Shown here: positions 34,009 through 52,562 of the stretch, piece after piece
Position numbering within the stretch: the first letter of the stretch is position 1
How the letters are laid out: each line of letters starts with the position of its first letter
Assembly: GCA_043808425.1 (NCBI GenBank)
Contig: JAZDEW010000023.1
Location: 1-52,585, forward strand
DNA from: Candidatus Omnitrophota bacterium
Lineage (GTDB): Bacteria > Omnitrophota > Gorgyraeia > Gygaellales > Profunditerraquicolaceae
DNA length: 52,585 nucleotides
Direction: 5' to 3'
Program-made: the position numbers and the translations under genes
The notes under the pieces: model-generated
Databases searched by the model: none
Told to the model about the DNA's origin: nothing
Seen by the model: only the letters and a program-made list of their open reading frames with translations

Positions 34009-34082
34009 CCCGCACCTTCTTTCCTAATCAATTCTATAAACCGTGTGACTTTAATATTCGAATATTTAGAAGATACGGGGTT
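34006..34082. repeat. Inverted repeat element ACCCCGCACCTTCT...AGAAGATACGGGGT
   Basis: 14-bp imperfect terminal IR; one arm also at 14991-15011, variant at 16455-16504. Confidence 0.65.
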
Positions 34083-34918: not shown

Positions 34919-34992
34919 AATTTACTTTAACAAAATTAACTTCTCCACAATTTTTCCTGCCAAATTATTTCCTATAAGAACAAACGCCTAAT

Positions 34993-35088
34993 TTATAAAA
35001 ATAAATTAGCGGGAAATCCGCTAAATTCCACAAAGCTTAAGCTTAAAATTGAGGCAACAATAAATACCAGAATAAAATTATTGAATGT
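34993..35088 (-). pseudogene. Decayed 3' remnant of rnfA
   Basis: Translates TFNNFILVFIVASILSLSFVEFSGF versus intact RnfA C-terminus TFKDLPLAFIIASMMCLAFMGFNGL; canonical position between rnfE and rnfB. Confidence 0.7.
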
Positions 35089-35682
35089 TCACGCTCTTTT
35101 ATCCTTGAGAAAATTAAATAATCCTAATAACAGGCCAATAACTAACAGAGCACCTGAGGGCATGCCAAAAACAAAAATCGGCTCAAACCCCTTAATCAAG
35201 ACATGCCCTAAGATCTGGCCGGAACCCAAAAATTCCCTGATCGCCGAAATTAGAATCAGCGCCAAGGTAAAACCTACACCCATACCTAAACCATCAAAAA
35301 ATGAACGCGCTAAATTATTCTTGCAAGCGAATGCTTCCGCGCGGCCCAAAACTATGCAATTAACCACAATTAAAGGAACATAAATACCTAAAGAACGGTC
35401 TAGCTGCGGGCTATAAGCCTTCATACACAACTCAATGATCGTAACAAAAGTAGCAATAATGACAATGTAGCAAGGTATACGAATTTTATCAGGGATTAAC
35501 TCTCTAACTAATGAAATAATTAAGCTAGATCCCAATAACACAAAGGTTGCCGCCACCCCCATGCCAATGGCATTAGAGACCGAGGTAGAAACTGCCAGTG
35601 TCGGACATAGCCCTAAAGCCAGAACAAATGTCGGATTTTCTTTAATGATACCCTTTGTAAATTCTTTTACTAGATTCTTCAT
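35089..35682 (-). CDS. rnfE: Rnf complex subunit E
   Basis: ENPTFVLALGLCPTLAV, IRIP, PLIVVNCIVLGRAEAFA. Confidence 0.95.
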   Translation of the reverse strand: MKNLVKEFTKGIIKENPTFVLALGLCPTLAVSTSVSNAIGMGVAATFVLLGSSLIISLVRELIPDKIRIPCYIVIIATFVTIIELCMKAYSPQLDRSLGIYVPLIVVNCIVLGRAEAFACKNNLARSFFDGLGMGVGFTLALILISAIREFLGSGQILGHVLIKGFEPIFVFGMPSGALLVIGLLLGLFNFLKDKRA

Positions 35683-35686
35683 TAAG

Positions 35687-35742
35687 CAGTTTTTCAGTTT
35701 TTTAATTTTTCGGTTTTTCAGTTTTTCGGTTTTTCAGTTTTC
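35687..35742. repeat. Octamer tandem repeat x7 spanning the rnfD stop
   Basis: CAGTTTTT CAGTTTTT TAATTTTT CGGTTTTT CAGTTTTT CGGTTTTT CAGTTTTC. Confidence 0.85.
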
Positions 35743-36682
35743 CAACAACCCCGTATATTCTATTCCTAGTATACCTGTCAATAAATGGTGTCGCCGCATT
35801 CATCATCAATATGGCATAAGATACGCCCTCCGGATAGCCTCCCCAAATCCGGATCACTGCCGTAAGCAAACCACAGCCCAGGCCAAAAATTAACTGCCCT
35901 TTAGCCGTTAAGGGAGTGGCCACATAATCCGTAGCCATAAAAAATGCTCCCAGAATCAGTCCGCCGCTGAGGATATGAAACAGCCAGTCTCCGCTAAAAA
36001 GCTGCGAGGCTCCAAAAACATAAGTTAAAACTGCCGTGGTACAAATATAAGTTACCGGAATATGCCAGGAAATATAACCTTTAATTAAAAGTAACGCTGC
36101 GCCGATTAATAACGCCAAGATACAAACTTCACCAATGCATCCGCCATGCTTACCCAAAAATAAATCCAAATAAGAAATATGCTCTAAAACCTTGCCTTCT
36201 TTAAGTATGGTCAAAGGAGTTGCGCTAGCGATGGCATCAAAACTAAACGGGGGGGTAAAGGTTGTCATATATTTTGGCCAGGAAGCCATCAAAAAAACTC
36301 TACCCACCAGCGCCGGGTTAAAAATATTTTGCCCTAAACCGCCAAAAACCTGCTTGCCCACCGCGATAGAAAACACTGCCCCCACCACCGGTAACCACAA
36401 CGGTACTCCGGGAGGAAGATTAAAAGCCAACAATATACCGGTAATTACCGCTGAGCCATCCAAAACCGTAATCTTTTTCTTCGTCCATATTCCAAAGACC
36501 AGCTCCGTTAATACTGCAGCCGTTACCGCGACTAAAGTTACCCATAAAGCGTCCAGTCCAAATATAATTACACCCGCAATCCCGGCAGGAACAAGGCTGA
36601 TAACCACCGTCCACATAATCCGGGCAATGGATTCTTGTTTATGAATATGTGGCGAACCTGAAACAATAAAATTATTTATCAT
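35702..36682 (-). CDS. rnfD: Rnf complex subunit D
   Basis: SPHIH, KQVFGGLGQNIFNPAL, FMN-site SATPL, GAFFMATD, GGYPEG. Confidence 0.95.
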   Translation of the reverse strand: MINNFIVSGSPHIHKQESIARIMWTVVISLVPAGIAGVIIFGLDALWVTLVAVTAAVLTELVFGIWTKKKITVLDGSAVITGILLAFNLPPGVPLWLPVVGAVFSIAVGKQVFGGLGQNIFNPALVGRVFLMASWPKYMTTFTPPFSFDAIASATPLTILKEGKVLEHISYLDLFLGKHGGCIGEVCILALLIGAALLLIKGYISWHIPVTYICTTAVLTYVFGASQLFSGDWLFHILSGGLILGAFFMATDYVATPLTAKGQLIFGLGCGLLTAVIRIWGGYPEGVSYAILMMNAATPFIDRYTRNRIYGVVGKLKNRKTEKPKN

Positions 36683-37307
36683 GCTTCAACTTTCTTTCGG
36701 TTCGCTCAACATGACCCTGAGCGAAGTCGACACTTCGACCCTGCTCAGTGTCAATGGTGAGCTTAGTCGAACCATCGAATGGGTCATTTTTTATCAATTC
36801 TTTTACCTCTTGCGCCTTTTTTATTACTGAATCCATTACCGCGCGGCTAGAAATTGTCGCACCGGCAATTGCCTGTACTCCGGATAGATCCAGGCTATTC
36901 TGTTGATTAAACTGCGCCGTAAATTTATCTTCCGTTATCCGCATGCCTAAACCCGGAGTCTCATTTAAAGAAAGAACTTTGATCGCGCTGATTTTTCCAT
37001 CCAGAAATATTCCGGCTAAAGTTTTAATTACGCTAGAATATCCTTTACCGCTGGCTTTAAAAACAAACCCGACCAGCTTATCCTGGCCATCAAATGCTTT
37101 ATAATATAATATCTCCTTAGCCGCAAGCGGCCCAACTGAAATAAATTTAACGGCCAGAGGCATAACTTCTTTGAGCGCTGCCTGTTCCTCAGCTAAAGCT
37201 CCGGCAAGAATTTTAGGGCTGGTGAGCATATTAACCGTGGCCAGCAACCCCGCGGCCACGACGCAAATAAGCCCCAAAATAAAACCGTACCGCATCATCT
37301 CTTTCAC
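36672..37307 (-). CDS. rnfG: Rnf complex subunit G with repeat-derived C-terminal extension
   Basis: N-terminal TM, ETPGLG, FMN-site AGATISS. Confidence 0.93.
   Translation of the reverse strand: MKEMMRYGFILGLICVVAAGLLATVNMLTSPKILAGALAEEQAALKEVMPLAVKFISVGPLAAKEILYYKAFDGQDKLVGFVFKASGKGYSSVIKTLAGIFLDGKISAIKVLSLNETPGLGMRITEDKFTAQFNQQNSLDLSGVQAIAGATISSRAVMDSVIKKAQEVKELIKNDPFDGSTKLTIDTEQGRSVDFAQGHVERTERKLKHDK
36695..36787. repeat. Nested TTCGAC...GCTCA family palindromes within the rnfG 3' end
   Basis: GACCCTGAGCGAAGTCGA / CTTCGACCCTGCTCAGTG / GGTGAGCTTAGTCGAACC units. Confidence 0.78.
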
Positions 37308-38572
37308 TTAGCTACCTCTAACTTTGCCCTTCTAATCGTCTGCACCAATCTGCGGCGGGAAGGGCAAACATAATTACATATGCCGCACTCAATGCAATCG
37401 CTCGCTCCATACTCTTTAGCTAAATTCCAAAGCGATCTTTCCGAAGCTAAATTAATCTGACAGGGTAAAAGGCCCACCGGACAGCCGCGCACGCAGGCCG
37501 CACAACGTATACAAGGATTTTCATCTAAAACTTTCACCTCATTTTTATTCATCAATAATAAACCGCTGCTGGATTTTATTATCGGCACCTGGTCCGTATA
37601 CTGAGCAATCCCCATCATTGGCCCACCGATAATAATTTTTGCCGGCTGCTCTTTAAGCGGTCCGCAAAATTCCACCAAATTCTTTATCGGAGTGCCAATA
37701 CGCACGCGTAAATTCTTAGGATTCTCCAGGCAACTGCCCGTAACCGTAACGATCCGTTCAATCAAGGGCTTACTATTATAAACCGCCTCATAAATCGCAT
37801 ACACCGTTGCTACATTTTGCACCAAAACACCGATATCAAAAGGCAGTTTGCCGCGGGGAATCTCTTTACCCAACAGATTCTGAATTAATTGTTTTTCCCC
37901 GCCCTGTGGATACTCCGATGGTAAAACCTTAACTTTGATATTAGAAACATCAGAAAAAGCTTTTATGGCTTCGGGTTTATTTTTCTCTATTCCTATATAA
38001 ATATCCTTTAGGCCTAAACATCTGGCAATTAGCGTGATCGCTGTGGATATCTGAGCTGTCTTCTCCACCATTAACCGCGCATCCGCCGTTAAAAATGGCT
38101 CACACTCTGCACCATTAATAATTAAAGTATCTAGCGGCTTAATCGGATTAAGTTTTATATGCGTAGGAAAGCTTGCCCCGCCCAGGCCCACTATTCCGGC
38201 ATCTAAAACAATTTTTCTCAAATCTGGCAACGTTAGCTTATCTATTTCTTGCGGATCTCGCGCGTGAAATTCTGCCGGATTATCCTGGCCGTCACCTTCG
38301 ATAACCACGGCTTTAGCCCGGCCTAAAACAGGGTGCGGCCAATTCTGAATAGCCACTACTTTGCCCGATATCGAGGCATGGATCGGCGCATATACATGAG
38401 CCGTAGCGCTGGCAATCTTCTGGCCCAGGCCAACCGTATCGCCAACTTTTACCTCCGGAATACATATCTTTCCTAAATGTTGAATTAAAGGAATATAAAC
38501 TTTCAAAGGAAGCGGCAAATTCTGCGTCACCTTATTTTCTGAATAATGTTTATTTTCCGCTAATCTAACCAT
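37304..38572 (-). CDS. rnfC: Rnf complex subunit C
   Basis: GIVGLGGASFPTHIK, NGAECEP, YPQGGEKQL, GGPMMG, two ferredoxin motifs. Confidence 0.95.
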   Translation of the reverse strand: MVRLAENKHYSENKVTQNLPLPLKVYIPLIQHLGKICIPEVKVGDTVGLGQKIASATAHVYAPIHASISGKVVAIQNWPHPVLGRAKAVVIEGDGQDNPAEFHARDPQEIDKLTLPDLRKIVLDAGIVGLGGASFPTHIKLNPIKPLDTLIINGAECEPFLTADARLMVEKTAQISTAITLIARCLGLKDIYIGIEKNKPEAIKAFSDVSNIKVKVLPSEYPQGGEKQLIQNLLGKEIPRGKLPFDIGVLVQNVATVYAIYEAVYNSKPLIERIVTVTGSCLENPKNLRVRIGTPIKNLVEFCGPLKEQPAKIIIGGPMMGIAQYTDQVPIIKSSSGLLLMNKNEVKVLDENPCIRCAACVRGCPVGLLPCQINLASERSLWNLAKEYGASDCIECGICNYVCPSRRRLVQTIRRAKLEVAK

Positions 38573-40478: not shown

Positions 40479-40490
40479 ATTCCTAACCAA

Positions 40491-40530
40491 TAAAAAAGGC
40501 TGTTTTTTTAAGAAACAGCCTTTTTTATTT
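40491..40530. terminator. Bidirectional intrinsic terminator
   Basis: AAAAAAGGCTGTTT...AAACAGCCTTTTTT between convergent genes. Confidence 0.85.
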
Positions 40531-40593: not shown

Positions 40594-41865
40594 TCATGGT
40601 TTCCAAACGAACCAAACAAATAAATAAGAAGCAACCACTGCCGCAAAAGTAAAAGGAAGTCCGATTTTCATAAAATCTATAAACTTAACTTTATACCCCT
40701 CTTTTTTAAGCAAACCGCAAGAAACAATATTTGCAGAGGCTCCTATTGGGGTAATATTGCCTCCCAAACTTGCGCCAATCAGTAAACCAAAAAGAAACAA
40801 CGAAGGGTTTACGTCCAACTTATAAGCCATCTGGCCAACGACAGGAAGCATGGCGGCTAAAAAAGGAACATTATCTACGAACGCGGAAATAATAACAGAA
40901 ATAAATACGAGTAGCGTGTAACCAAAGAAAATATTTCCGCCGATTACATTTGATAAAGATTGCGCAATGTTACCTGTCCATCCGGTTAAGGTAAGGCTTC
41001 CAACTAAGATAAATATACCGACCAGGAATAACGCCGTATCCCAATCCAGCGATTTAATCAGCTCAGATACCCTTCCCCTGTTCGATACTTTCTCCCACGC
41101 TACTGAAATAATCCCCATAATCATGCAAATAATCCCCGCAGCAGAAGTAAACCCCGTATCAAAAAAAGATGAGGCTGCGAGTAAAACTATCAGCGCTACG
41201 AGGAAAATAGTAGGAACCCATGAATGGACCTTTTCAACAGGTATGACTTCAACTTTATGCTTCTCTTTGCGAAACAAAAACATCAAAACAAAAAACGAAA
41301 CAAAAGCGCCCAACTCAACCGCAAAAAATATACTCGGCTTGCCTCTATAAAGAAAAAAATCGCCAAAATTCATTTTCGTAAAGCCGGCCAAAAGCATGCT
41401 CGGAGGATCCCCAATCAATGTTGCCGCGCCTTGCAGGTTGCTCGATATCGCAATTGCAATCATCATCTTTATCGGGTTAAGATTAATTTTACGGGCAAGC
41501 GTCAAAGCAATAGGAGCAATAATCAGAACCGTTGCCACATTCTCTACAAATGCAGAAATAAAACCAGCCAGGACGCACATAAGCAGAATCGCCCAAGCAG
41601 TATTTCTTGATTTATCCACAATAATCTCAGCAATAACGGCAGGCACCCGGCTTTTCATAAAAACATCCGCTACGGCTAATGTCCCCACAAAAATACCCAT
41701 AACATTCCAATTTACAGAACCAAAAGCTTCAGGGAATGATAGCACTCGGGTTACTAAGAGTAAACCGGCTGCGCTTATCGCAACCAAAGGCCTTCTTCCG
41801 GGAAATACCACGAATAAAATATAGGCCAAAACAAAAAGAATGAGTGAAATAGCGCTTCTCTCCAT
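40594..41865 (-). CDS. ArsB/NhaD/CitMHS-superfamily (IT) ion transporter
   Basis: SAFVENVATV, SNLQGAATLIGDPP, SAFVDNVPF, GGNITPIGASAN. Confidence 0.9.
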   Translation of the reverse strand: MERSAISLILFVLAYILFVVFPGRRPLVAISAAGLLLVTRVLSFPEAFGSVNWNVMGIFVGTLAVADVFMKSRVPAVIAEIIVDKSRNTAWAILLMCVLAGFISAFVENVATVLIIAPIALTLARKINLNPIKMMIAIAISSNLQGAATLIGDPPSMLLAGFTKMNFGDFFLYRGKPSIFFAVELGAFVSFFVLMFLFRKEKHKVEVIPVEKVHSWVPTIFLVALIVLLAASSFFDTGFTSAAGIICMIMGIISVAWEKVSNRGRVSELIKSLDWDTALFLVGIFILVGSLTLTGWTGNIAQSLSNVIGGNIFFGYTLLVFISVIISAFVDNVPFLAAMLPVVGQMAYKLDVNPSLFLFGLLIGASLGGNITPIGASANIVSCGLLKKEGYKVKFIDFMKIGLPFTFAAVVASYLFVWFVWKP

Positions 41866-41867
41866 TC

Positions 41868-42011
41868 TTATTTATTAAACTTATCTGACGATTGGGCCTT
41901 CTTTTTGCCCTTTTCGCCTTGGTTACTTTTGATAATCAAATAAATATAAAAAAGCGCTACTACTCCTCCAAGAACATACACCGGCCAATCCTGCCATAAA
42001 TTTCCAGTCAT
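41868..42011 (-). CDS. 47-aa single-pass membrane protein; not in the ORF track
   Basis: MTGNLWQDWPVYVLGGVVALFYIYLIIKSNQGEKGKKKAQSSDKFNK; GAGAGG RBS; stop 2 nt before the transporter ATG. Confidence 0.72.
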   Translation of the reverse strand: MTGNLWQDWPVYVLGGVVALFYIYLIIKSNQGEKGKKKAQSSDKFNK

Positions 42012-42045
42012 GCTTAACCTCTCTATTAGTTTAAATTCGTTTTAA

Positions 42046-42654
42046 CTAAAATTTTAAACCGTTAAATCCCATAAATGCAAGACACATCATAGAAGCAATG
42101 ATAAATGCCAAAGGTAAATCCTTGAATGTCTTGGGTACATTACAAAGCTCAAGCCGCTCACGAATACCTGACATTAAAAGCATGGCCAAGGTATAGCCAA
42201 TTCCAACACATAGCCCATGAAATATCGAAAATATTAAACTTCCGGATACTGCCTTATTGTTTACAAAGAACATATCAATATTTAAAACCGCTACGCCTAA
42301 TACGGCGCAATTTGTAGTAATCAAAACAAGATAAATACCAAAGGCGCGATAAAGAGTGGGGCTCGTTTTTCTGATCACCATTTCCACTAACTGTACAAAA
42401 GCAGCAATGATTAAGATAAAAACTAAGGTGCGTAAATATGTTAAGTTAAAAGGAGCCAAAATAAATCTATAGACTAACCATGTGATAACAGATGATACTG
42501 TGGTTACAAACGTAACAGCCATGCTCATGGCAAACGCCTGCCTTGTGTTTTTAGATACAGCGACAAAAGGACACAGCCCCAAAAAACGCGACAAAATAAC
42601 ATTGTTAACAAAAACTGCCGAAATAAAAATCGCTAAAAACTGTCCAAAATTCAT
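42046..42654 (-). CDS. rnfA: Rnf complex subunit A, displaced from the rnf operon
   Basis: VNNVILSRFLGLCPF, LRTLVFILIIAAFVQLVE, LITTNCAVLG, GIRERL. Confidence 0.94.
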   Translation of the reverse strand: MNFGQFLAIFISAVFVNNVILSRFLGLCPFVAVSKNTRQAFAMSMAVTFVTTVSSVITWLVYRFILAPFNLTYLRTLVFILIIAAFVQLVEMVIRKTSPTLYRAFGIYLVLITTNCAVLGVAVLNIDMFFVNNKAVSGSLIFSIFHGLCVGIGYTLAMLLMSGIRERLELCNVPKTFKDLPLAFIIASMMCLAFMGFNGLKF

Positions 42655-42658
42655 TTTT

Positions 42659-42787
42659 TTACTCCTTCATGCTATTTAATCGTATTTTTTTATTTCTTAC
42701 TTTTCTATTATTCGCAGAATAAAATAGAACTGAGAACAAAATCGCTAACATAATAATTTCAAACGTCTGTAGTATTTCTGCTGACAC
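42659..42787 (-). CDS. 42-aa single-pass membrane protein; not in the ORF track
   Basis: GTG after AGGGGG; MSAEILQTFEIIMLAILFSVLFYSANNRKVRNKKIRLNSMKE; its 3' end carries the rnfA RBS (AAGGAG TAA). Confidence 0.62.
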   Translation of the reverse strand: MSAEILQTFEIIMLAILFSVLFYSANNRKVRNKKIRLNSMKE

Positions 42788-42826
42788 GATATCCCCCTAC
42801 AATTTTAGTTTTTTATTTATTTTAAT

Positions 42827-42903
42827 AAAAGCTATCATGCATGCACACGCAAGATGCGTCCGGCCACCTAAAACCTCCGGAAGCAAGAAGATTCCGGACA
42901 CTT
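42827..42903 (-). ncRNA. Candidate cation-riboswitch-like element, variant copy upstream of rnfA
   Basis: Same architecture as 52459-52545: 5' tail, hairpin, GGAGG linker, hairpin with 8-nt loop complementary to the tail, weak terminator with U4. Confidence 0.55.
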
Positions 42904-42917
42904 GTACAACAAATTAA

Positions 42918-44129
42918 CTAAAGATTAACAATATCTTCGGGATGATACAACGAAAGAAACAATAACATATAATTCCTTAAATGGCGCGTAATTAAAAAAT
43001 TGTTTTTTATATGCTCCCTCCCATTTTCTCCTAATTTCTTGGCGTACGCCGGACTGCTTAAAAGTTGTTTTATTGCAAAACTCGCTCCCTCAACAGAATG
43101 ACATAATAATCCTGAATATTTATGTTTTATCTGCAAAGGGATGTCGCCGACATTTGAAGCTACAACGGGTTTTGCCTTCCATAATGCCTCGGCAACTGTT
43201 AAGCCAAATCCCTCCCTGATAGACTTCTGGATAATTACATCTGAGGCCCTTTGCAGCGCATTAACCTCTATATCATTTTGAGGTAATAGTAAGATATGAA
43301 TATCCGGGTCTTTCTTAGCTTTTTCTTTAACCTCTTCAAGAACCCTGAATCCTTCCGGATCATCTTCTGCTGTCCCACCAGCCAACACCAGCTGGCAATC
43401 TGTATATTTTTTTACCTGCAAATATGCCTCAATTACGCCTATGGGATCTTTCAGGCGGTCAAAGCGGGATATCTGAGTAATGATTGGCTTATCTTTTTTG
43501 ATATCGTATTTTTTCAATACTAAATCAATTATTTCTTGTGGCAATTCCTTATTTTTATCACTTAACGGATCGATAGAAGGAGGAATTAAGAATTGCCTAA
43601 TGGGTAACTTCCTTGAAAAAGTCGGAGCGGAAAACACTGCTGAGTCGTATCGAATAATAAAATCCATAAGAAATCCCCAAACTTTTTCATCGGGATTAGA
43701 AACATCAATATGGCAACGCCAAAGCCACTTATTAACGGCTTTCTTTTTTATTAAGGCTATTGGTTGCGGGTCATGAATGAAAATAATGTCCCCGTAGGTA
43801 TCAACGCTTTCGATATTCTGCTGGCTAGTCTCCATGAATACTTCAAAATCTCTTTTAGTTATCTCCTCGGCTCTGCCATGCAAAGCGTTGTGAAACTTTT
43901 TTGTCACTGCAAAAAACTGCTCTCCACCCTTTATCACGTCCCATTTGGTATCTACCTCCAATTCCCTCAACAGCGGGACCATCCGGTTTAATATCTCCGC
44001 CACTCCCCCACCCACAGGAGTAGAATTTATATGCTGAATAACCTTGCCTTTTAACCGTTCACCAAGCAACCTTAAATCATCAATAATCGCTTGCCCCACT
44101 AAAGAAATATACTTTTCTATTTTTGCCAT
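42918..44129 (-). CDS. treT: Trehalose glycosyl-transferring synthase TreT-like (GT4)
   Basis: HINSTPVGGGVAEIL, TKKFHNALHG, HDPQP, WRCHID, SRFDRLKDP, QKSIREGFGLTVAEALWK. Confidence 0.88.
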   Translation of the reverse strand: MAKIEKYISLVGQAIIDDLRLLGERLKGKVIQHINSTPVGGGVAEILNRMVPLLRELEVDTKWDVIKGGEQFFAVTKKFHNALHGRAEEITKRDFEVFMETSQQNIESVDTYGDIIFIHDPQPIALIKKKAVNKWLWRCHIDVSNPDEKVWGFLMDFIIRYDSAVFSAPTFSRKLPIRQFLIPPSIDPLSDKNKELPQEIIDLVLKKYDIKKDKPIITQISRFDRLKDPIGVIEAYLQVKKYTDCQLVLAGGTAEDDPEGFRVLEEVKEKAKKDPDIHILLLPQNDIEVNALQRASDVIIQKSIREGFGLTVAEALWKAKPVVASNVGDIPLQIKHKYSGLLCHSVEGASFAIKQLLSSPAYAKKLGENGREHIKNNFLITRHLRNYMLLFLSLYHPEDIVNL

Positions 44130-44801
44130 TTAATTAACTATCTTTCTTTCAACAATTTGTATAATCTTATTCCTTAAATCCTCTAAAGTACTCGTGTAGG
44201 GATCAAAACTTGAAATATTATCTGCTAATTTCTTATCTCCCAGGGAATTTTCTATCCAAAACGCGAAATCATTAGTTGGCTTTTCAAGCCTAAGCCGCGC
44301 TTCAAAAATATGAAAATAAATAGAATCAATGGTAATTTTCTTTAAAACCTCTACGAATTCATTCAGATCATACGCGATATAGTTTGTCGGCAGAATAAAA
44401 CTGACGGATTTAATAAAATGAAATTCTTCTTCAGATCTGGCAAATTTCAACTTGGCCAGCGGATTATCCTTTAAATAGATCTCAATGGTTGAGGCGATCT
44501 TTTCCCGCAAATCCCGGATAGTTGAGTATTGTATGGTGTCAATACTCACCAGCCTTTCTCCAAGCTCATCTTCTCCAAGAATATCCGTTACCCAATAAGC
44601 AAAATCGTTAGGAGGCTCGGGAGAAAGATACTGATGCTGCTGTAAAAATCTATGGGTGTGGTGATAAATACATGAGCCAGATACTTGTTTAATAAGGGCC
44701 AAAAACTGGCCTAAGGTGGTCGCTCGCAAGCCGGTCAGCTCCGACAAATGCAATCTCGTGCAAAACCTAAATGGCTCTTTTGCTTTTATTAATTCTTCCA
44801 T
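44130..44801 (-). CDS. DUF5752 / OrfY-like protein (TreT partner)
   Basis: Internal two-fold repeat (PFRF..L.QF..IK.V...CIYHH..NDFAYW / FHF..L.EF..LK.I...SIYFH..NDFAFW); abuts treT. Confidence 0.75.
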   Translation of the reverse strand: MEELIKAKEPFRFCTRLHLSELTGLRATTLGQFLALIKQVSGSCIYHHTHRFLQQHQYLSPEPPNDFAYWVTDILGEDELGERLVSIDTIQYSTIRDLREKIASTIEIYLKDNPLAKLKFARSEEEFHFIKSVSFILPTNYIAYDLNEFVEVLKKITIDSIYFHIFEARLRLEKPTNDFAFWIENSLGDKKLADNISSFDPYTSTLEDLRNKIIQIVERKIVN

Positions 44802-44803
44802 AA

Positions 44804-45601
44804 TTAGCTATACTGTAAGGCTAGTATCGAACGTAAAAATTTAGCTACTTCTTCTGTATTCTTTAAATAATAATCAGCTTTGGAACTCCCGGATTTTCCC
44901 ACGAATACCGTTAACCCTTTTCTTTTTAAAGCCTTAAAAGCGTCCTCATCAGTTATATCATCTCCGATATAAACGGGCAAGGCATTCTTAACTCCTAAAA
45001 TAAATTGCTGTCTTGCTAGAAACCACAAGGCTGCCTTGCCTTTATCCCACTTAACCGGCGGCTTTATCTCATAAACTTTTTTACCGGCATTAACCTTTAT
45101 TTTATTACGCGCTATATAAGGACTGGTAACTTCAGAAATAATCTTCTCAAATACAGGCATATCTTTTTTGTCAACTAAGCGGTAGTGAATACTCAGTGTC
45201 AAGCCTTTATCCTCAACCAGCGCGCCCTTAATGCCAGAGAGCCGCTTCTGCATATCTTTAGCGATATTTCGTATAATTGATTTTAATCGCGATGTAACCT
45301 GGCTTTTAAATTTAATCTTCGCCCCTTCGATCTCCAAACCGTGGTTACCAGCGTAGACGATACCGCCTATCCCGACTATATTTTTTATATCCTCCAGCTT
45401 CCTTCCGCTGAGAATACCTATTTTACAATAAAAACTTCTGGATAATTTCTGTAATAATTCTTTTGTATTCTTATGGATAACTGCCTTACTCGGAGTCTTG
45501 ACAATAGGCGTTAATGTCCCATCATAATCCAATAAAAGTAAAATAAATTTATTTCTTAACAGCTCTTTTATCTTACTAAATTGCGAAAATAAATATTCCA
45601 T
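44804..45601 (-). CDS. otsB: Trehalose-6-phosphate phosphatase
   Basis: HAD motifs LDYDGTLTPI, SGR, GNHGLE, WDKG, YIGDDITDEDAF. Confidence 0.94.
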   Translation of the reverse strand: MEYLFSQFSKIKELLRNKFILLLLDYDGTLTPIVKTPSKAVIHKNTKELLQKLSRSFYCKIGILSGRKLEDIKNIVGIGGIVYAGNHGLEIEGAKIKFKSQVTSRLKSIIRNIAKDMQKRLSGIKGALVEDKGLTLSIHYRLVDKKDMPVFEKIISEVTSPYIARNKIKVNAGKKVYEIKPPVKWDKGKAALWFLARQQFILGVKNALPVYIGDDITDEDAFKALKRKGLTVFVGKSGSSKADYYLKNTEEVAKFLRSILALQYS

Positions 45602-45662
45602 GCCTAAATCTTGCCCAATGATATCAATTCCGTAATAATATTCCCTCACCCGGCGATAAACG

Positions 45663-45775
45663 TTATTTTCCAAAATAACTTTTCGCGTTTATTCCGTTAT
45701 AATCTAAAAACAACATTACATATTTATTGCTCAATTTTTCTTTTAGCTTACCCCAAGCGTTAAGATATTTTTCAT
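45663..45775 (-). pseudogene. Frameshifted, truncated N-terminal remnant of a second otsB
   Basis: ATG out of frame with YLNAWGKLKEKLSNKYVMLFLDYNG; compare OtsB YLFSQFSKIKELLRNKFILLLLDYDG. Confidence 0.65.
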
Positions 45776-45779
45776 ATTC

Positions 45780-46964
45780 CTAATGATGCTCAATAGTTAT
45801 TTCGCCCGCCTTTTGCAAAGCGTATTTAGTACATAAAGGGCCAAATAATTCATAGATAACGGTAGTGGCGACAATCGTAGTAAAAATCATGCCGCCAACA
45901 TTTGGAAAATCGTTTTTAGCGACTAAGGCGCAGCCTAAAGCAACGCCTGCTTGTGGCACTAAGCCTAAGCCCAAATATTTTTTTATGCTATTAGAAGCGC
46001 CAGAAATATGCGCGCCTAATTTCGCCCCAGCTACCTTACCAATCACACGGAATATTAAATATGCCAAACCAATTAATCCTAATTTAGACAAAAGCCCTAT
46101 TTCTAAATTTGCCCCGGCCAAAACAAAAAAAAGTAAAAATAGCGGAGAATCTACTGTTTTTAAAACCTCAAAAGGATTGGAGGAGGATTTGTTGACATTA
46201 ACTAAAACTGCCCCTAAAAACATACTTGCTAAGAGTACGGACAAGTGAAGCCAAGTAGCTATTCCTATAGTTGAAAAAATAAATCCAAGAGTAAAAATCA
46301 GAAGCTCTGCTTGCGTACGAATAAAACGAGAAAAATAAGACAATAGCATAGCCATGGCGCCCCCTAAAATAAAAGCGCCCAATATGCTCAAGATAGAGTT
46401 AAAAATTACCTTAATCAAAAAAAATGTATCTACCATGTGGCTATGAATAGCCTGGGATATGGCCAAAGAAATAGCAAAAATAATAAGGCACCAGGCATCA
46501 TCAATAGCAACGACCCCTAAAAGCGTATCCGTAAAATTGCCTTTAGCGCGATATTCTCTTATCACCATTACCGTAGCCGCAGGTGCAGTAGCAGAAGCAA
46601 TCGCCCCAAAAAGAAGAGCAATATAAAAAGGTTGCCTTAGAATAAACAAAAATATTAATGTGACTAAAAACCATGCCCCACATGCCTCTAAAACCGAAAT
46701 CCAGACTACTGACTTACCAATCTTACGAAAGCTATCACGAGAAAAATTTTGACCGATACTAAAGGCAATTATTCCTAAAACTATTTTTGAAATTAAACCT
46801 GACATATTAAGAATTGCTACAGGAATAAGATTTAACAATGAAGATCCGATGAGTATCCCTACCATAAGATAAGCGGTTACTGCTGGAAACTTAATTTTAC
46901 TTATCAACCTGGCAGAAAATAAACCTGCAAGCAGAATAAAACCAAATCCTAATATAGTATTCAC
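45780..46964 (-). CDS. Cation:proton antiporter (Na+/H+ exchanger family)
   Basis: PAVTAYLMVGILIG, ASATAPAAT, VAIDDA, FFVLAGA, PQAGVALG. Confidence 0.9.
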   Translation of the reverse strand: MNTILGFGFILLAGLFSARLISKIKFPAVTAYLMVGILIGSSLLNLIPVAILNMSGLISKIVLGIIAFSIGQNFSRDSFRKIGKSVVWISVLEACGAWFLVTLIFLFILRQPFYIALLFGAIASATAPAATVMVIREYRAKGNFTDTLLGVVAIDDAWCLIIFAISLAISQAIHSHMVDTFFLIKVIFNSILSILGAFILGGAMAMLLSYFSRFIRTQAELLIFTLGFIFSTIGIATWLHLSVLLASMFLGAVLVNVNKSSSNPFEVLKTVDSPLFLLFFVLAGANLEIGLLSKLGLIGLAYLIFRVIGKVAGAKLGAHISGASNSIKKYLGLGLVPQAGVALGCALVAKNDFPNVGGMIFTTIVATTVIYELFGPLCTKYALQKAGEITIEHH

Positions 46965-47435
46965 TTAAACGACACCTTTTCCCGAAAAGACTTGCCGGAT
47001 TATATCAAATATACCAATCTTTCCGACTAGTTCTCCTTTTTTATCTACTACGGGAAATTCTTCTTTAAGCTGTAGCTTCATAAGCCTAAAAGCCTCCTCT
47101 AGAGTAGTATCTTCCCGTAAAGAAACGAATTTTGTTTCCATTATATCATCCGCAATCACCAAGTCTCCGATATCATCAGTCAATTCTACCTTAAAAATAT
47201 CTTCTTCCTGGTCATCCAGAAAAGGGACCGCGTTCAATATTTCCGGCCGATATGGGCTAAACACGCCAATTAAACTACGAAAAGAAATAACCCCCACTAA
47301 ACGGCTTCCCTCTTCAACTACAGGCACCAACGGAAAAAGATGAAATTTACTAAACAACCCTAACAATTCTTTTAATTTTGTGGATCGCCTTACCGTTATT
47401 ACTTCCTTTGACATTATTTCTTTTACTTGCATCAA
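46965..47435 (-). CDS. Tandem CBS-domain protein
   Basis: VKEIMS..VPVV..LVGVIS; DIME..FPVVD..LVGKI. Confidence 0.9.
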   Translation of the reverse strand: MMQVKEIMSKEVITVRRSTKLKELLGLFSKFHLFPLVPVVEEGSRLVGVISFRSLIGVFSPYRPEILNAVPFLDDQEEDIFKVELTDDIGDLVIADDIMETKFVSLREDTTLEEAFRLMKLQLKEEFPVVDKKGELVGKIGIFDIIRQVFSGKGVV

Positions 47436-47448
47436 TTAGCTCCTTAAT

Positions 47449-48501
47449 TTAGCTTTTTTCCTGTTCATAGTTTATCGCCCTAATCGGATAAGGAATATTA
47501 ATCCCTTCTTGAATATAGCGTTTATGCAATCTCTTAATAAACTCATGTTTTATCAAATACTGATCAACAAATTCCTTAGCCCTTAATATAACCGTGAATT
47601 TTATGCTAGAATCGCCAAAAGTCTTATAACGAATAAATGGCTCAAAATAAGCAACCCCACCGTTTATTTCTGTCATCACTAACTTTGCCACTTCACAAGT
47701 AATCTTCTCAACTTTTTCCAAATCACTTTTATAATGCACTCCCAAATCCACTAAAACTGCCATCTCCTTATCCGGTAAACAATAGTTCGTAACAATAGCT
47801 TTATTTAATTTATCATTTGGAATAAGAACAATATTGTTAGGCAACATTTTGATCTTAGTTGAACGCCAGTTAATATCCACCACATAGCCTTCTTCTTGCG
47901 TTTCCAGTTTGATATAATCACCAACTCTTATCTGCTTAGCCACAGTAATATGAAAACCGGCAAAAAGATTTGACAAAGTATCCTGAAGCGCCAAAGCAAC
48001 GGCCAAGCCACTCACGCCTAAAGTTGCTAATATCGGTGTTATCGATATTCCTAGGCTATTAAGAATTATTAACGCGCCAATCGAGAAAACAAAAATCCTG
48101 GCAATATTCTGAGTGAGGCTGGTAACAGGCAAGGCAGAATCAATTCTAGAAGCATAAAATTTTATTACCCCGGATAATAAATTCGCCAATGCCAACACTA
48201 CAGAAATTATGCCTAAGATAAGAGTACTTTTACTCATAACGTGCACAATATTTTCTGGAAGCTTTGAAAATTGCAACGCAAAATATAAAGCCAGCATCAA
48301 ACATAAAACCATAAATGGGCTTTTAGCTACTTGCACGACAATATCATCCAGCTGCGTAGATGTTTTTTTAGCCCAATGTGAAAGGCGGCTAAAAATTATC
48401 TTCTTAACAATGAGCCCAATAAACAAAACTACCAGAAAAATAATCAATGGCATAAACATTTCCGCTAAACTAGCGAATCTTAAAAGCAGATCTTTATTCA
48501 T
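47449..48501 (-). CDS. Small-conductance mechanosensitive channel (MscS family)
   Basis: LGVSGLAVALALQDTLSNLFAG, RVGDYI, GINIPYP. Confidence 0.93.
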   Translation of the reverse strand: MNKDLLLRFASLAEMFMPLIIFLVVLFIGLIVKKIIFSRLSHWAKKTSTQLDDIVVQVAKSPFMVLCLMLALYFALQFSKLPENIVHVMSKSTLILGIISVVLALANLLSGVIKFYASRIDSALPVTSLTQNIARIFVFSIGALIILNSLGISITPILATLGVSGLAVALALQDTLSNLFAGFHITVAKQIRVGDYIKLETQEEGYVVDINWRSTKIKMLPNNIVLIPNDKLNKAIVTNYCLPDKEMAVLVDLGVHYKSDLEKVEKITCEVAKLVMTEINGGVAYFEPFIRYKTFGDSSIKFTVILRAKEFVDQYLIKHEFIKRLHKRYIQEGINIPYPIRAINYEQEKS

Positions 48502-48516
48502 CTACACCTCAATAAG

Positions 48517-50754
48517 TTATATTTTATTTAAAGCAACCAGCTCAGTAATAATATTTGCTGCCCAGCGGTAAATATTATTTTCGGCTATCACCTTGCGCAT
48601 ATTTTCCATACGTCTTTGTTTCTCTTCCTTGGGCATCTGGATTGCCAGTTTTATGCTATCCGCAAACTCTTCAATCGAGTACGGATTAACTAGAATAGCA
48701 TCGGTGAGCTCGCGCGATGCTCCTGTAAATTGACTTAAGATTAAAGCCCCGGATAAATCATCTCTCTCCGCCACATACTCTTTAGCCACCAAATTCATCC
48801 CGTCATGCAGTGAGCTAACGATACAAATATCACCAAGTTTATAGTAAGGCTGAATATCATCCTGAGAGAAATGCTTTTTAAGATAGATTATCGGTTTCCA
48901 ATTCCCATCTATGTGTTTCCAGTTAATTTTTTCAACCAATTCATCAATTTCGCCAATTAAGTCGTGATAACGCTTAATATGCGTACGGCTTGGGGCAGCC
49001 AATTGGATAAAAATAAATTTCTTCTTATACTCAGGATACTTCTCTAAAAATCTATCTATCGCTAAGATTCTCTCAACTATGCCTTTAGTATAGTCAATTC
49101 TATCCACGCCCACCGCGACAATTTTATTCTCAAGCTCAAACTCTTTTTTTAGCTTTTCTACATCCCTTATCGGTTCAACTTTAAATGAGCCATCGCCGAT
49201 ACGCGCATTAATACTTATGGGAAAAGCCCTTATAAAAGTCTCTTTTCCCGAACGCACAACACTAAATTTTTCCGTATCCACGCGTGACTCCAGCAGGCGA
49301 TTAGCGGTATCGAGAAAATTATTACAATGATTCTGAACATGAAAACCAATCAAATCCGATCCTAACATTCCTTCTAAAATTTCATTCTGAAAAGGACAAA
49401 TCATAAAGGCTTCTGGGGTAGGCCAGGGGATATGCCAGAATAAGGCTATTTTCGCATCCGGCCGCTTATCTTTTATCATTTTTGGCAAAAGCGTAAAATG
49501 ATAATCCTGTATAAATATGAACGGACTTTTAGCGGGCAACTCACTCAAAACGCTATCCGCAAACTTTTGATTTACTTCTTTATACATGCGCCAGTCAGAT
49601 TCTTTAAAAATCGGACGCGTATGTGTATTATGGCATAATGGCCACAACCCTTCGTTTGAAAAACCATAATAATAACCTTGCTCCTCATCCTTGTTAAGCC
49701 AAATTCTTTTAAGAATATACCGGTTATCATCGGGGGGGACACCAAGTTTATCTTTAGAGTTAACGAATTTCCTATCCGAATTACCGCTGCCATGAGCAAT
49801 CCAAGTCCCGCCACAAGCAGAAAGTATGGGGTGAATTGCAGTAACAACACCGCTTGCCGGCCTTATACATATCGCCTTACCAATGCCATCATCGAAAACA
49901 TGCATATAAGGCTCCCTATTAGAAACCACAAACAATGAATTATCGCCTAATTTTGCATGAATAAGGTCTCTCAGCTTAGCTTCAGTCCAAAGCTCTTCTT
50001 TTTGCAATCGGACATGCGCTTCATCTGATAGGGTGCGCCGAGCTACTCTGATGCTTAAAGCAACCTGCTCTACTTCGCTGGCAAGCTTACCAAGATCACC
50101 TTTTTCTTTTATAGGATGCGCTTTATCAATTTCTCCTCTCTGAAAATACTTAAACCAATCTGTTAGGCGCTGTATGGGTAGAGCAAAAATCTGCCTATGA
50201 AGAATAATGGAAATAAGAAAAATCACTACAACTAAAATTATTAACGTTGAACTAATATGTTTCCAAAGCTCAACTAACCTCGCAAAGACATAGGAAGTAT
50301 CGTGAATAACCTCAACCATTCCCAGAAACTGCCCCTCGTCATCAACTATGGGGAGAATATAGCTATAAACCTGATAATCTTTAAATTGCTCTAATTCTCC
50401 CCGCGGAGCCAGATTAGCTATAATATCTTTAATATAAGGCTTATCTTTTTCTTTCCAATCGAGGAACCTTTTAGTAAGCGCGATTATATTCCCGTCTTTA
50501 TCGTAAATAGCGCAGCCCTGCAATCTTTCCCGGGTCTCAAATTTTTCCGCAAGGTAATTTGCGGTCTTTAAATCATTGACTAAAAGCACATGCTTCACCG
50601 ATAATTCCATGCTTTCGGCAATGCTTCTGGCTTTTCGCTTTAAGTCATCAATAAGCTTCTCTTCTTCTAAGCGCACCTGAAAAAAACCAAAAAGCGTAAA
50701 GGCCACGGAAACAATAATTAGAATCGGTAGAATAAATAAAAATACTCTTCTCAT
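48517..50754 (-). CDS. otsA: Trehalose-6-phosphate synthase (GT20) fused to an N-terminal TM-sensor-TM-HAMP module
   Basis: VVSNREPY, YYYGFSNEGLWP, QDYH, GVDRIDYTKG, DGMNLVAKEY; two TM helices and HAMP-like PIQRL...DLGKLA. Confidence 0.92.
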   Translation of the reverse strand: MRRVFLFILPILIIVSVAFTLFGFFQVRLEEEKLIDDLKRKARSIAESMELSVKHVLLVNDLKTANYLAEKFETRERLQGCAIYDKDGNIIALTKRFLDWKEKDKPYIKDIIANLAPRGELEQFKDYQVYSYILPIVDDEGQFLGMVEVIHDTSYVFARLVELWKHISSTLIILVVVIFLISIILHRQIFALPIQRLTDWFKYFQRGEIDKAHPIKEKGDLGKLASEVEQVALSIRVARRTLSDEAHVRLQKEELWTEAKLRDLIHAKLGDNSLFVVSNREPYMHVFDDGIGKAICIRPASGVVTAIHPILSACGGTWIAHGSGNSDRKFVNSKDKLGVPPDDNRYILKRIWLNKDEEQGYYYGFSNEGLWPLCHNTHTRPIFKESDWRMYKEVNQKFADSVLSELPAKSPFIFIQDYHFTLLPKMIKDKRPDAKIALFWHIPWPTPEAFMICPFQNEILEGMLGSDLIGFHVQNHCNNFLDTANRLLESRVDTEKFSVVRSGKETFIRAFPISINARIGDGSFKVEPIRDVEKLKKEFELENKIVAVGVDRIDYTKGIVERILAIDRFLEKYPEYKKKFIFIQLAAPSRTHIKRYHDLIGEIDELVEKINWKHIDGNWKPIIYLKKHFSQDDIQPYYKLGDICIVSSLHDGMNLVAKEYVAERDDLSGALILSQFTGASRELTDAILVNPYSIEEFADSIKLAIQMPKEEKQRRMENMRKVIAENNIYRWAANIITELVALNKI

Positions 50755-50772
50755 AAATAATAACCTCTAATT

Positions 50773-51444
50773 TTACTGCGATTTTACCTTACTTAATTTA
50801 GAAGGTAAAATAACGATTTCCACTCTCCTATTTTTCTGCTTATTCCGCACTATGTCATTCGGCGCTACCGGATGAAATTCTCCGTATCCGTTTGCAGAAA
50901 GGCGCTGCGGTTTAATCTTTCCTTCGCCGATAAGATCGTGTAATACTGCCAATGCCCTAGCCGAAGAAAGCTCCCAATTTGAATTCCATCCTGAATATTT
51001 AATCGGATCGTTATCCGTATGGCCTTCAATAGCTATATTTGATCCAGGAACATCCCTATTTAAAACTTCAGCAACCTTATTAAGCGTAATCTTACCGTCT
51101 TTTTTTACCTTGTCTTTCCCCGAATCAAAGAATATCTCGGAAACAAAAGTAATCACCAGGCCACGTTCAGTCATTTGCAGCTTGGCCTTATATTCTCCAA
51201 TTTCTTTTTTAAGCGATTCTTCAAGCTCCCGTTTAGCCTGTTCCAGGTCAGAAAGCTCTTTATCTTTCTCTTGATATACCTGTCGAACTTCTTTTGTTTT
51301 CTCCTTCTGAAGCTGAGCGGCCATATTTCTTAAGCTGGCATTCTCTATCTCTAGCTCGTCGGCTCTTCTCGCTTTCTGGATATAGGCGCATCCGGATAAC
51401 ATAGAAACCATCAAAATCATAATAATCATTAATTTAGCCTGCAT
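50773..51444 (-). CDS. OmpA/MotB-domain lipoprotein with coiled coil
   Basis: Lipobox LSGC; FDSGK, EGHTD, NWELSSARA, KNRRVEI. Confidence 0.9.
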   Translation of the reverse strand: MQAKLMIIMILMVSMLSGCAYIQKARRADELEIENASLRNMAAQLQKEKTKEVRQVYQEKDKELSDLEQAKRELEESLKKEIGEYKAKLQMTERGLVITFVSEIFFDSGKDKVKKDGKITLNKVAEVLNRDVPGSNIAIEGHTDNDPIKYSGWNSNWELSSARALAVLHDLIGEGKIKPQRLSANGYGEFHPVAPNDIVRNKQKNRRVEIVILPSKLSKVKSQ

Positions 51445-51690
51445 TAGCAAATCTCCGTTTTTACAATCCCTTAAAAGCATTTATACGCGCTCAACGCAAC
51501 CTTAACGATAAGCTCTTCCAGAGGCAAAGCTATTAAGATTCGCGCGCTTAGTTAATACGCAAATAATAAAATTACTTTACAAGTAAACACTACGCCCGCA
51601 TCACGACAAACACCATTCCCAGGGCTGGCCTTATAAGCAATCGTCATATCAACCGATAAATATGCTAAGAGAATATTTTCTTCATTTCCA

Positions 51691-52068
51691 TTATTCAGAC
51701 AAATATTTATTCAGCTCCACGGATGTTTTCTTGCCTACAATGCCATCTGCCTTAAGATTATGTGCCTTTTGAAATTTTATAATAGCACCTTTGGTCTTAG
51801 AACCAATTTTGCCATCAACCGCACCTTGATAAAAACCGGAACTCTTTAATGCCTTTTGAATTTGCCTCACACTTAAGTTAACCAAGACAGAATATGTTGT
51901 TGTTTTGGCTGGCTGAACGTTTTCATAATCCCAAGAAGAAGTATTTTGCTGGTATGTTTGCGAAGGCCCCTGGTAGCCTGATGGCTGCGTTGTTTGTTTC
52001 TTTACGCCAGTCGTACAGCCTCCTATAATTAAAGTAAATAAAATAAACCCCATCATTTTAATTAACAT
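51691..52068 (-). CDS. Peptidoglycan-binding domain lipoprotein
   Basis: Lipobox IGGC; IQKALK..GFY.GAVDG.IG..T..AI.KFQ..L.ADGIVG. Confidence 0.9.
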   Translation of the reverse strand: MLIKMMGFILFTLIIGGCTTGVKKQTTQPSGYQGPSQTYQQNTSSWDYENVQPAKTTTYSVLVNLSVRQIQKALKSSGFYQGAVDGKIGSKTKGAIIKFQKAHNLKADGIVGKKTSVELNKYLSE

Positions 52069-52123
52069 AATCTTCTCCTTTTCAATAAAAAACCATCACT
52101 AGAAATACCATTAAACGGTAAAA

Positions 52124-52414
52124 TTAAATAACTTGCTCCAGGGGCATAACAAAAGCCTTAACTCCTTCTTTACCAAGAGTTTTACGCAGATTCGTTATGC
52201 CAAGAACCACCTGATTTGCCTGTGTATCATCGCAGGCTACATATGAAATATAATTTAGGCCTGGCCAGACTTGATCACCTAAGTGAGTTCCGGAAGCCGT
52301 CCCTTTCCCATATACACGGGTTATCTTTGTGTAGTTGACGAGGCCGCATCCATCTAAAACTTCCATTACCTCAACGTCTATAGCTTCATTATATGTTAGC
52401 ATGATCATTTTCAT
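52124..52414 (-). CDS. P-II-like protein (PG0541 transporter-associated family)
   Basis: 96 aa; YTK..VYGKG..SGTHLG..VWPG.N; start at MKMIML after AGGAG (ORF-track extension overlaps the riboswitch). Confidence 0.8.
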   Translation of the reverse strand: MKMIMLTYNEAIDVEVMEVLDGCGLVNYTKITRVYGKGTASGTHLGDQVWPGLNYISYVACDDTQANQVVLGITNLRKTLGKEGVKAFVMPLEQVI

Positions 52415-52458
52415 CTTAACTCCTATAAAGCTATGGCTAAAATTTATCTTTATAAAAT

Positions 52459-52545
52459 AAAAAAGCCATCCTACACTCGCGTGCAAGATGGCGGCCCGAC
52501 CATCTAATGATCCTCCAGGAATACTTATTTATTCCCAGACCGCTT
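52459..52545 (-). ncRNA. Candidate Na+/Li+ riboswitch (nhaA-I / DUF1646-like) with overlapping terminator
   Basis: GCGGUC-[UGGGAAUA..UAUUCCUG]-GAGG..AGAUGG-UCGGGCCG-CCAUCU, overlapped by terminator GCCAUCUUGCAC-GCGA-GUGUAGGAUGGC-U6. Confidence 0.72.
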
Positions 52546-52556
52546 ATCCATCCACT

Positions 52557-52562
52557 ATTATA
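52557..52562 (-). promoter_or_regulatory. -10 box of the salt-stress cluster promoter
   Basis: TATAAT about 12 nt upstream of the riboswitch candidate; -35 would fall at the window edge. Confidence 0.5.

Follow-up and report, generated by a model that had tools for sequence, protein, structure and literature searches.

A nhaA-I riboswitch-led trehalose and ion-transport island with a paralogous rnfA in a Candidatus Omnitrophota genome

The window analysed here, a 52,585-nt stretch of a Candidatus Omnitrophota genome (assembly GCA_043808425.1, contig JAZDEW010000023.1, positions 1 to 52,585; the genome is labelled G000 among those compared), carries on its minus strand a 12-kb cluster of trehalose, envelope and ion-transport genes, which begins with a riboswitch of the nhaA-I class and includes rnfA2, a paralogue of the rnfA gene of the Rnf complex. 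Li+ and Na+ riboswitches were validated only in 2022, and their known targets are mainly transporters, together with some osmoprotectant enzymes and Na+-ATP synthase genes; the phylum Omnitrophota has, to our knowledge, no cultured members. The cluster is probably a rearranged version of an island found across its genus, in which the head switch does the sensing, a second switch has decayed to a relic, and rnfA2 has taken over from the canonical rnfA.

The head riboswitch and the genes behind it

The cluster starts with an intact nhaA-I aptamer of the Li+-I / Na+-II class (52486..52542; coordinates are those of the window, and features lie on the minus strand unless stated otherwise), in which P1, the AGG linker, P2 and the invariant loop are all present. 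The element reaches 48.7 bits with the Rfam nhaA-I model (RF03057; gathering score 37, E 1.1e-6) and 74.6 bits with R1, a covariance model built from 40 aligned intact copies, drawn from genomes of the genus and from two further loci, and its placement in a cation-riboswitch class by an earlier sequence-only reading is borne out by the Rfam search. An intrinsic terminator follows (52455..52492; 12-bp stem and U6, supported by the minimum free energy fold; hairpin -19.5 kcal/mol), giving the head element the terminator platform that serves as a criterion of the Na+-II subclass. The motif GCCAUCU forms the 3' arm of P2 and the 5' arm of the terminator alike. Because it is common to both, P2 and the terminator are mutually exclusive, and the element would therefore be a transcriptional ON switch: a ligand-stabilised P2 should block termination, with a predicted ON behaviour in vivo.

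The ligand may be either Li+ or Na+. According to White et al. (2022, PMC9646797; statements taken from this and the other cited papers cover the available portions of each), nhaA-I RNAs act as Li+ switches, translation is what most published members control, and a response to Na+ is reported for rare terminator-bearing variants (Na+-II), which they found only in Deltaproteobacteria. The Li+/Na+ selectivity shifts with a single C/U difference at position 54 (PMC9646797).

All 14 open reading frames (ORFs) of the cluster lie on the minus strand at the positions given by the sequence-only reading, and its gene names agree with Pfam and NCBIfam, except for the label 'OrfY' for the DUF5752 gene, for which a literature search returned no paper. 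The first gene encodes a P-II-like PG0541-family transporter-associated protein (52124..52414, 96 aa when started at the ATG at 52414; 86.3 bits with NCBIfam NF045581, cut-off 45; Pfam P-II 27.9 bits), followed by genes for a peptidoglycan (PG)-binding protein (51691..52068; PG_binding_1, E 3.9e-17) and an OmpA-domain protein (50773..51480; OmpA, E 3.8e-17). Trehalose synthesis is represented by a 745-aa protein that joins a sensor-like N-terminus to a GT20 trehalose-6-phosphate synthase (OtsA; 48517..50754; Glyco_transf_20, 415.9 bits), by the trehalose-6-phosphate phosphatase OtsB (44804..45673; Trehalose_PPase, 157.2 bits; TIGR00685, 173.4 bits, cut-off 68) and by a TreT-type trehalose synthase (42918..44129; TreT_GT1, 182.1 bits, plus Glycos_transf_1), with the GT20, Trehalose_PPase and TreT_GT1 domains all above their cut-offs. 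Between OtsA and OtsB lie genes for an MscS mechanosensitive channel (47449..48501; three MscS Pfam domains), a CBS-pair protein (46965..47435; CBS, E 1.1e-24) and a cation/H+ antiporter of the CPA type (45780..46964; Na_H_Exchanger, 121.2 bits), and a DUF5752 gene (44130..44801; PF19027, 226.1 bits) separates OtsB from TreT.

The tail module consists of mp42, encoding a 42-aa membrane micro-protein (42659..42787; tblastn matches in relatives, E to 1.5e-12) that matched no Pfam family, rnfA2 (42046..42654; TIGR01943 247.6 bits, cut-off 229.3), mp47, encoding a 47-aa membrane micro-protein (41868..42011; tblastn matches in relatives, E to 7.8e-19), and an IT-superfamily permease of the CitMHS/ArsB/NhaD-like kind (40594..41865; CitMHS, 199.6 bits), for which no NCBIfam model scored above its cut-off. 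Relatives conserve both micro-ORFs as proteins (tblastn E as low as 1e-19). Intergenic gaps measure 0-55 nt, apart from 210 nt between the PG-binding and OmpA genes, 106 nt between the antiporter and OtsB, and 130 nt between TreT and mp42. A bidirectional terminator with a 19-bp stem (40489..40529) ends the cluster and is shared with a convergent cspA-like gene. This cold-shock-domain gene (40117-40527, plus strand) gives 41 bits with the Rfam cspA-thermoregulator model, below its cut-off of 78, and the match mostly reflects coding sequence and the shared terminator.

In translation, the N-terminus of the sensor-OtsA protein reads as a transmembrane (TM) segment, ~140 aa outside, a second TM segment and a HAMP-like region, with a weak sCache match and similarity to the N-terminal region of WalK (E 1.9e-10), which suggests that OtsA may be controlled directly by a membrane signal. 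This two-TM, periplasmic Cache-like and HAMP-like N-terminus (residues 1-270 of OtsA) is retained genus-wide, with 69-91% identity over the whole protein.

Serial nhaA-I switches and the island across the genus

Of 48 genomes of the genus, 33 contain RF03057, some with as many as seven copies, which are often spaced 5-7 kb along a single strand; across the phylum Omnitrophota it was detected in 39 of the 151 genomes sampled. The 40 aligned intact copies share 21 invariant columns, including an invariant P2 loop. Their P1 covaries: 9 of 15 pairs are changed on both sides and 95.6% of cells are paired, compared with 40-63% in slid controls, and none of 500 shuffles reached the observed score. 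Behind each of the 40 stands a hairpin, with a median of -16.45 kcal/mol, and then a U-rich tail, with a median of 8 U in 9.

The window proteins were mapped on 18 fetched loci and on six loci around paralogous rnfA copies. The common order begins with a switch, PG-binding/OmpA, a second switch in some loci, sensor-OtsA, MscS in some loci, OtsB, DUF5752 and TreT; the last module, after TreT, comprises a switch, the P-II-like gene in some loci, mp42, mp47 and the permease. In the relatives examined the DUF5752 gene always adjoins TreT, and mp47 always stands just before the permease, with or without rnfA2. The CBS-antiporter pair occurs in the cluster only here and in G027 among the loci examined. 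What the sequence-only reading had taken as a single regulon with two RNA elements is, in its gene layout, a genus-wide Omnitrophota island with serial nhaA-I switches. At the 3' junction of TreT, an intact switch is present in 12 of the 17 genomes examined, a relic in two (G000 and G008) and neither in three (G034, G073 and G074).

Several further observations concern these elements. The only other nhaA-I RNA in this assembly (G000:C52:11331-11380, plus strand; locus L045 2332-2381; 52.2 bits) precedes two SPFH/band-7 (HflK/HflC-like) genes, named by eye from their translations; an association of this kind is not mentioned in the available portions of White et al. (2022) and Weinberg et al. 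(2017). The relic directly after TreT in G008 (L065 13538-13597) scores 23 bits, and the 4.4 kb of downstream sequence retrieved for that locus showed no mp47/permease module. In G051, the place immediately downstream of mp47, taken by the permease in other genomes, is occupied by a 6S RNA gene (L037 4423-4580; 70.5 bits).

A decayed switch between TreT and mp42

The 130-nt gap behind TreT holds the second RNA element of the cluster (42849..42907). It gave no Rfam match at E<=10 in 42800-42930 under permissive filters, and membership in nhaA-I, nhaA-II or DUF1646 was ruled out, with no match reaching a gathering score. Because Rfam showed no match for this element, R1 was built to test homology. 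When R1 was run on the whole window (both strands, filters off), the second element was the second-best match (30.8 bits, E 3.9e-7), the next reaching 10.6 bits; the intact copies score 58.6-80.4 bits, against 30.8 for this one. Its alignment with the head element extends over both aptamer and terminator (mean column identity 74%), and it matches the post-TreT switch of G026, its ortholog, base for base. The two RNA elements are thus related beyond chance, the second being degenerate.

The degeneration affects both halves. P1 and AGG are kept, while six of the 21 invariant columns are violated (G8, U50, G54, C56, G57 and C58), the P2 loop GGUCGGGCCGCC has become GGCCGGAC--GC, the 5' GGGU has become GUGU, and the 3' arm of P2 has lost 2 nt. 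The terminator (42827..42857) is reduced to an interrupted hairpin with a four-U tract, and alignment places a 7-nt deletion in the U-run; its -7.4 kcal/mol falls short of the intact-copy median of -16.45 kcal/mol, as do its four U's of the median 8 U in 9, and it is absent from the terminator-like list of the terminator scan. By these comparisons, the element is a homolog decayed in both halves and not a second working member. The sequence-only claim of two related structured RNAs accordingly stands for homology and falls for function.

That claim had been part of a wider proposal: both RNAs would function as cation riboswitches, the second possibly with a different specificity, and one signal would serve trehalose synthesis, channels, antiporters and the subunit that completes Rnf. 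We regard this proposal as quite unlikely. The second element does retain a P1 of 6-7 bp, the AGG linker and a 5-bp P2, and it is a significant homolog. It has C for the family's U in GGUCGGG, and Li+ and Na+ responders differ by U/C at one position (PMC9646797), position 54, which may or may not be the one concerned. At the orthologous positions in G026, G051, G072 and G075, moreover, intact switches stand directly before rnfA2. However, the element has no Rfam match at E<=10, its broken invariants include a loop G, and G-to-A changes at two loop G's weakened the Li+ response in published M1 mutants (PMC9646797). Both the 3' arm of P2 and its terminator partner are damaged, and no further copy of this variant was found in the 48 genus genomes or in seven close (80-90% identical) metagenome rnfA2 loci.

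rnfA2 and the loss of the canonical rnfA

Among 44 genomes of the genus with a strong rnfA match, a canonical rnfA, 72-78% identical to the window gene, is the only strong copy in 39, and it adjoins rnfE in the genomes checked for position. The other five (G000, G012, G026, G033 and G034) have a copy 85-100% identical to that of the window and located away from rnfE. In an IQ-TREE phylogeny of 44 RnfA sequences, these copies and one from G051 form a single clade (support 99/95), nested in the group of this genus and apart from other families; a FastTree phylogeny of 69 sequences gives a single clade of ten (support 0.876), adding L075, L084, L085 and L105 from other Omnitrophota metagenome-assembled genomes. 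G051 is assigned to another family, with 5% contamination and 83% completeness, and was used with caution as a possibly mixed bin; its two rnfA copies, however, are nested among those of the genus. The trees thus place the rnfA of the cluster in a distinct paralogue clade, rnfA2.

Pairwise dN/dS of rnfA2, where dS is unsaturated, is 0.04-0.17, indicating purifying selection. Five positions are fixed in all seven rnfA2 sequences and absent from the 44 canonical ones (M45, V78, V110, F142 and L180). RnfA2 matches chain A of the Acetobacterium woodii structure 9eri with E 6e-58. V110 aligns with A. woodii P107, where canonical Omnitrophota copies have Pro or Thr; P107 adjoins the gate residue L108 and T110, T111, N112 and C113. 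Kumar et al. (2025, PMC11889175) assign these five residues to the Na+ path that RnfA and RnfE form. C28 and C116 of RnfA2 align with the [2Fe-2S] cysteines C25 and C113 of A. woodii, and the TTNC Na+-site motif is kept.

Downstream of rnfA2 by 7 kb, on the same strand, lies an rnfC-rnfG-rnfD-rnfE-(relic)-rnfB operon without rnfA (34082..38572; Pfam), followed by purN; rnfA is hence the one subunit missing from it, as the sequence-only reading had stated. The rnfE-rnfB gap measures 170 nt. A remnant of a canonical rnfA (35015..35087), its final ~70 nt, follows immediately on the stop codon of rnfE, with 79% nucleotide identity over 73 nt to the canonical rnfA of G012 (E 9e-15) and a tblastn match to residues 178-200 (E 9e-7). 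The relic marks a ~530-nt deletion inside the rnf operon. The assembly (1.27 Mb, 92.8% complete) contains only two genes of the Rnf-Nqr family, rnfE and rnfA2; the canonical rnfA has been deleted, and rnfA2 is the only rnfA found in this assembly. G034 shows no trace of the canonical gene at its site; the two genomes have lost it in different ways and occupy separate branches of the rnfA2 clade.

The rnf genes of the window region (34082-39813, minus strand) are ordered C-G-D-E-(A)-B; the usual order is C-D-G-E-A-B. An MFS transporter gene overlaps the start of rnfC by 13 nt, and purN lies 3' of rnfB in those loci of relatives that reach that far.

Could rnfA2 encode something other than an Rnf subunit, namely a separate ion-handling device working with the micro-proteins and the IT permease? 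Its constant position between mp42 and mp47 beside the permease and its clade-specific substitutions would fit such a role, which is nevertheless highly improbable: RnfA2 exceeds the cut-off of the RnfA family (TIGR01943) and keeps both cluster cysteines and TTNC, the complete rnfC-G-D-E-B operons of G000 and G034 come with no other rnfA found, and the combination of mp42, mp47 and the permease is found without rnfA2 in most genomes of the genus.

Position of rnfA2 in relatives

In ten genomes, rnfA2 is tied to the island, always in or beside it and usually in the order mp42 - rnfA2 - mp47 - (permease). Both kinds of rnfA, with an intact switch directly upstream of rnfA2, are present in G026, G051, G072 (L075) and G075 (L084), the post-TreT nhaA-I elements of G026 and G051 scoring 49 and 48.2 bits. 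G012, G073 and G074 have both kinds and no switch within the fetched upstream sequence; in G012, the gene before rnfA2 encodes a transporter, and the 1.1 kb up to the end of the contig hold no switch. rnfA2 is the sole rnfA in G000, with its relic switch, and in G034, with none. G033, whose contig is cut, falls in none of these groups. Among metagenome contigs, an intact switch lies 1.9 kb upstream of rnfA2 in L198, L156 and L157 (identical matches) have a switch variant with a long P1 insert (39.7 bits), and L155 shows the arrangement of G012 with the P-II gene further upstream. In L154 (1043-1499) and L158 (760-1216), rnfA2 and the permease are separated by three mp47-like micro-ORFs in tandem, and G012 has an extra micro-ORF before rnfA2.

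These arrangements bear on the possibility that mp42, rnfA2, mp47 and the permease form a separate constitutive unit, whose place behind the trehalose genes would be inherited synteny without regulatory meaning here. A sole RnfA should be required whenever Rnf is, the former post-TreT switch is decayed in both halves, and the module is portable, standing after other genes in G012 and L155 and behind a promoter-like region of its own in G075. Yet the TreT-mp42 gap spans only 130 nt with no better-than-chance promoter match, and in G034, G073 and G074 rnfA2 follows TreT without any terminator-bearing element, which suggests that co-transcription with the trehalose genes is tolerated. We consider a wholly independent tail module unlikely.

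Rearrangement of the island and a model for its regulation

The head of the cluster has itself been rebuilt. The 3' flank of the head switch (52400-52500) is of the post-TreT type and runs into the P-II gene; in the spacer after this gene (52050-52135), a head-type terminator is represented by its 3' half, along with the PG-binding leader. Both features fit a transplantation of the P-II gene into the head riboswitch by recombination between switch copies.

The ancestral island, as we reconstruct it, would have carried serial nhaA-I switches on one strand, each with its own intrinsic terminator, in the order switch 1, PG-binding/OmpA, (switch), sensor-OtsA, MscS, OtsB, DUF5752, TreT, switch 3, (P-II-like), mp42, mp47 and IT permease. 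Binding of Li+ or Na+ would stabilise P2 and tie up the 5' arm of the terminator, allowing transcription to continue. In a subclade, a duplicate of rnfA would have been inserted in the last module between mp42 and mp47. Three changes mark the present genome: the P-II gene and the 3' half of a post-TreT-type switch appear to have moved behind the head aptamer, the post-TreT switch has lost its aptamer core and most of its terminator, and the rnf operon has lost its canonical rnfA, with rnfA2 remaining as the only RnfA found. The head switch alone would still be able to sense cations, a bound cation admitting RNA polymerase into the P-II, envelope, trehalose, channel and antiporter genes. The tail module would most likely be reached by read-through past the weak relic hairpin, from an internal promoter, or by both.

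A single cation signal governing all 12 kb, including rnfA, is thus possible. If read-through dominates, the only RnfA would be made in proportion to the cation signal, and the sequence-only idea would hold in modified form; if, in addition, Rnf exports Na+, this would amount to a sensible feedback.

Several points weigh against this reconstruction. The relic hairpin falls in the weak tail of the intact set, in which values of -2.9, -6.7 and -7.6 kcal/mol occur, and may still terminate some transcripts. The relic could even be a working variant, being a single sequence that allows no covariation check. A further rnfA may lie on DNA outside the 92.8%-complete assembly, though not at the canonical site, which is empty. 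With 38 sites, compared with 36.8 +/- 5.9 in shuffles, the promoter scan is uninformative both ways; the promoter and terminator scan was relied on for the two obvious terminators only. An attractive hypothesis is that the switch decayed because rnfA2 became the sole copy; an adjacent switch is present in 0 of 2 sole-copy and 4 of 7 two-copy genomes, a difference that is not significant, and G008 has a relic without rnfA2.

A bolder extension, which we offer tentatively and consider doubtful, is that RnfA2 is an alternative ion-channel subunit induced by a cation riboswitch. In relatives, it would be swapped into Rnf beside RnfE when cytoplasmic Na+ (or Li+) rises, retuning the Na+ path (Pro/Thr to Val near the gate and TTNC), whereas in this genome and in G034, which have lost the standard subunit, the assembly of Rnf as the main energy-conserving pump would depend on a gene within a riboswitch-headed osmotic-stress operon. 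If true, the quantity of Na+ pump would be determined by cellular Na+, closing a feedback loop.

Irrespective of this extension, the data extend the nhaA-I class to phylum-level use in Omnitrophota, with terminator platforms outside Deltaproteobacteria and with serial switches splitting a trehalose/ion-transport island into modules. They tie the class to a dedicated RnfA paralogue, RnfA being located at the Na+ path of Rnf in a 2025 structure and simulation study (PMC11889175). A natural pair of RnfA proteins differing beside the Na+ site offers a handle on the pumping model and on subunit exchange under salt stress, and the decayed switch together with the deleted canonical rnfA may provide a dated example of regulatory RNA loss after take-over by a paralogue.

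Comparison with known systems

The head element shares with the Li+-I riboswitch (RF03057, PMC9646797) P1, the AGG linker, P2, the conserved loop and a score above the model cut-off. The gene context is shared as well: cation antiporters, NhaD-like permeases, trehalose-6-phosphate synthase and peptidoglycan genes are all in print for this class. White et al. report nhaA-I RNAs before genes for trehalose-6-phosphate synthase, for the transport of cations and for osmotic stress, and before nhaD, and, in environmental sequences, serial nhaA-I switches before cation-transport and osmotic-stress genes, with a triple arrangement with terminators before nhaD (PMC9646797); Weinberg et al. (2017, PMC5737381) noted peptidoglycan-related genes and neighbouring nhaA-I copies. 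The differences lie in the host, Omnitrophota, and in the hairpin and U-rich tail after all 40 genus copies, as opposed to the mostly translational control of published members. The Na+-II riboswitch of Desulfobulbus propionicus (PMC9646797) resembles the head element in its nhaA-I fold, a terminator overlapping P2, its ON behaviour and target genes outside the nhaA set, but has C and not U at position 54; all 40 Omnitrophota copies carry the majority loop GGUCGGGCC. The Na+-I riboswitch (DUF1646 motif, PMC9337991) has similar ties to Na+ transporters, osmoprotectant synthesis and Na+-based energy conversion, and differs in its aptamer consensus.

The sequence-only reading knew of no description of such a combination. 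Its trehalose and ion-transport part is known in outline from the available portions of PMC9646797 and PMC5737381, whereas the link to rnfA2 appears unreported. 'Rnf', 'NQR', 'ferredoxin' and 'trehalose' have no occurrences in the main text of PMC9337991, nor has 'Rnf' in that of PMC9646797, whose Supplementary Table I of gene associations may list rnf genes. A literature search of titles and abstract beginnings, with supplements outside it, found no paper linking rnfA to a riboswitch, and likewise none describing Omnitrophota riboswitches. The unreported part is hence the rnfA2 paralogue, in its tie to the nhaA-I island of Omnitrophota and its take-over of the canonical role here. Compared with RnfA of Na+-pumping Rnf complexes (A. 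woodii 9eri, Clostridium tetanomorphum 7zc6; PMC11889175), RnfA2 keeps the cluster cysteines, the gate leucines and TTNC. It differs from A. woodii RnfA in that its gene lies away from rnfE, in belonging to a separate paralogue clade, in having Val for P107, and in an 8-residue insertion, a stretch also present in two canonical Omnitrophota sequences aligned with it.

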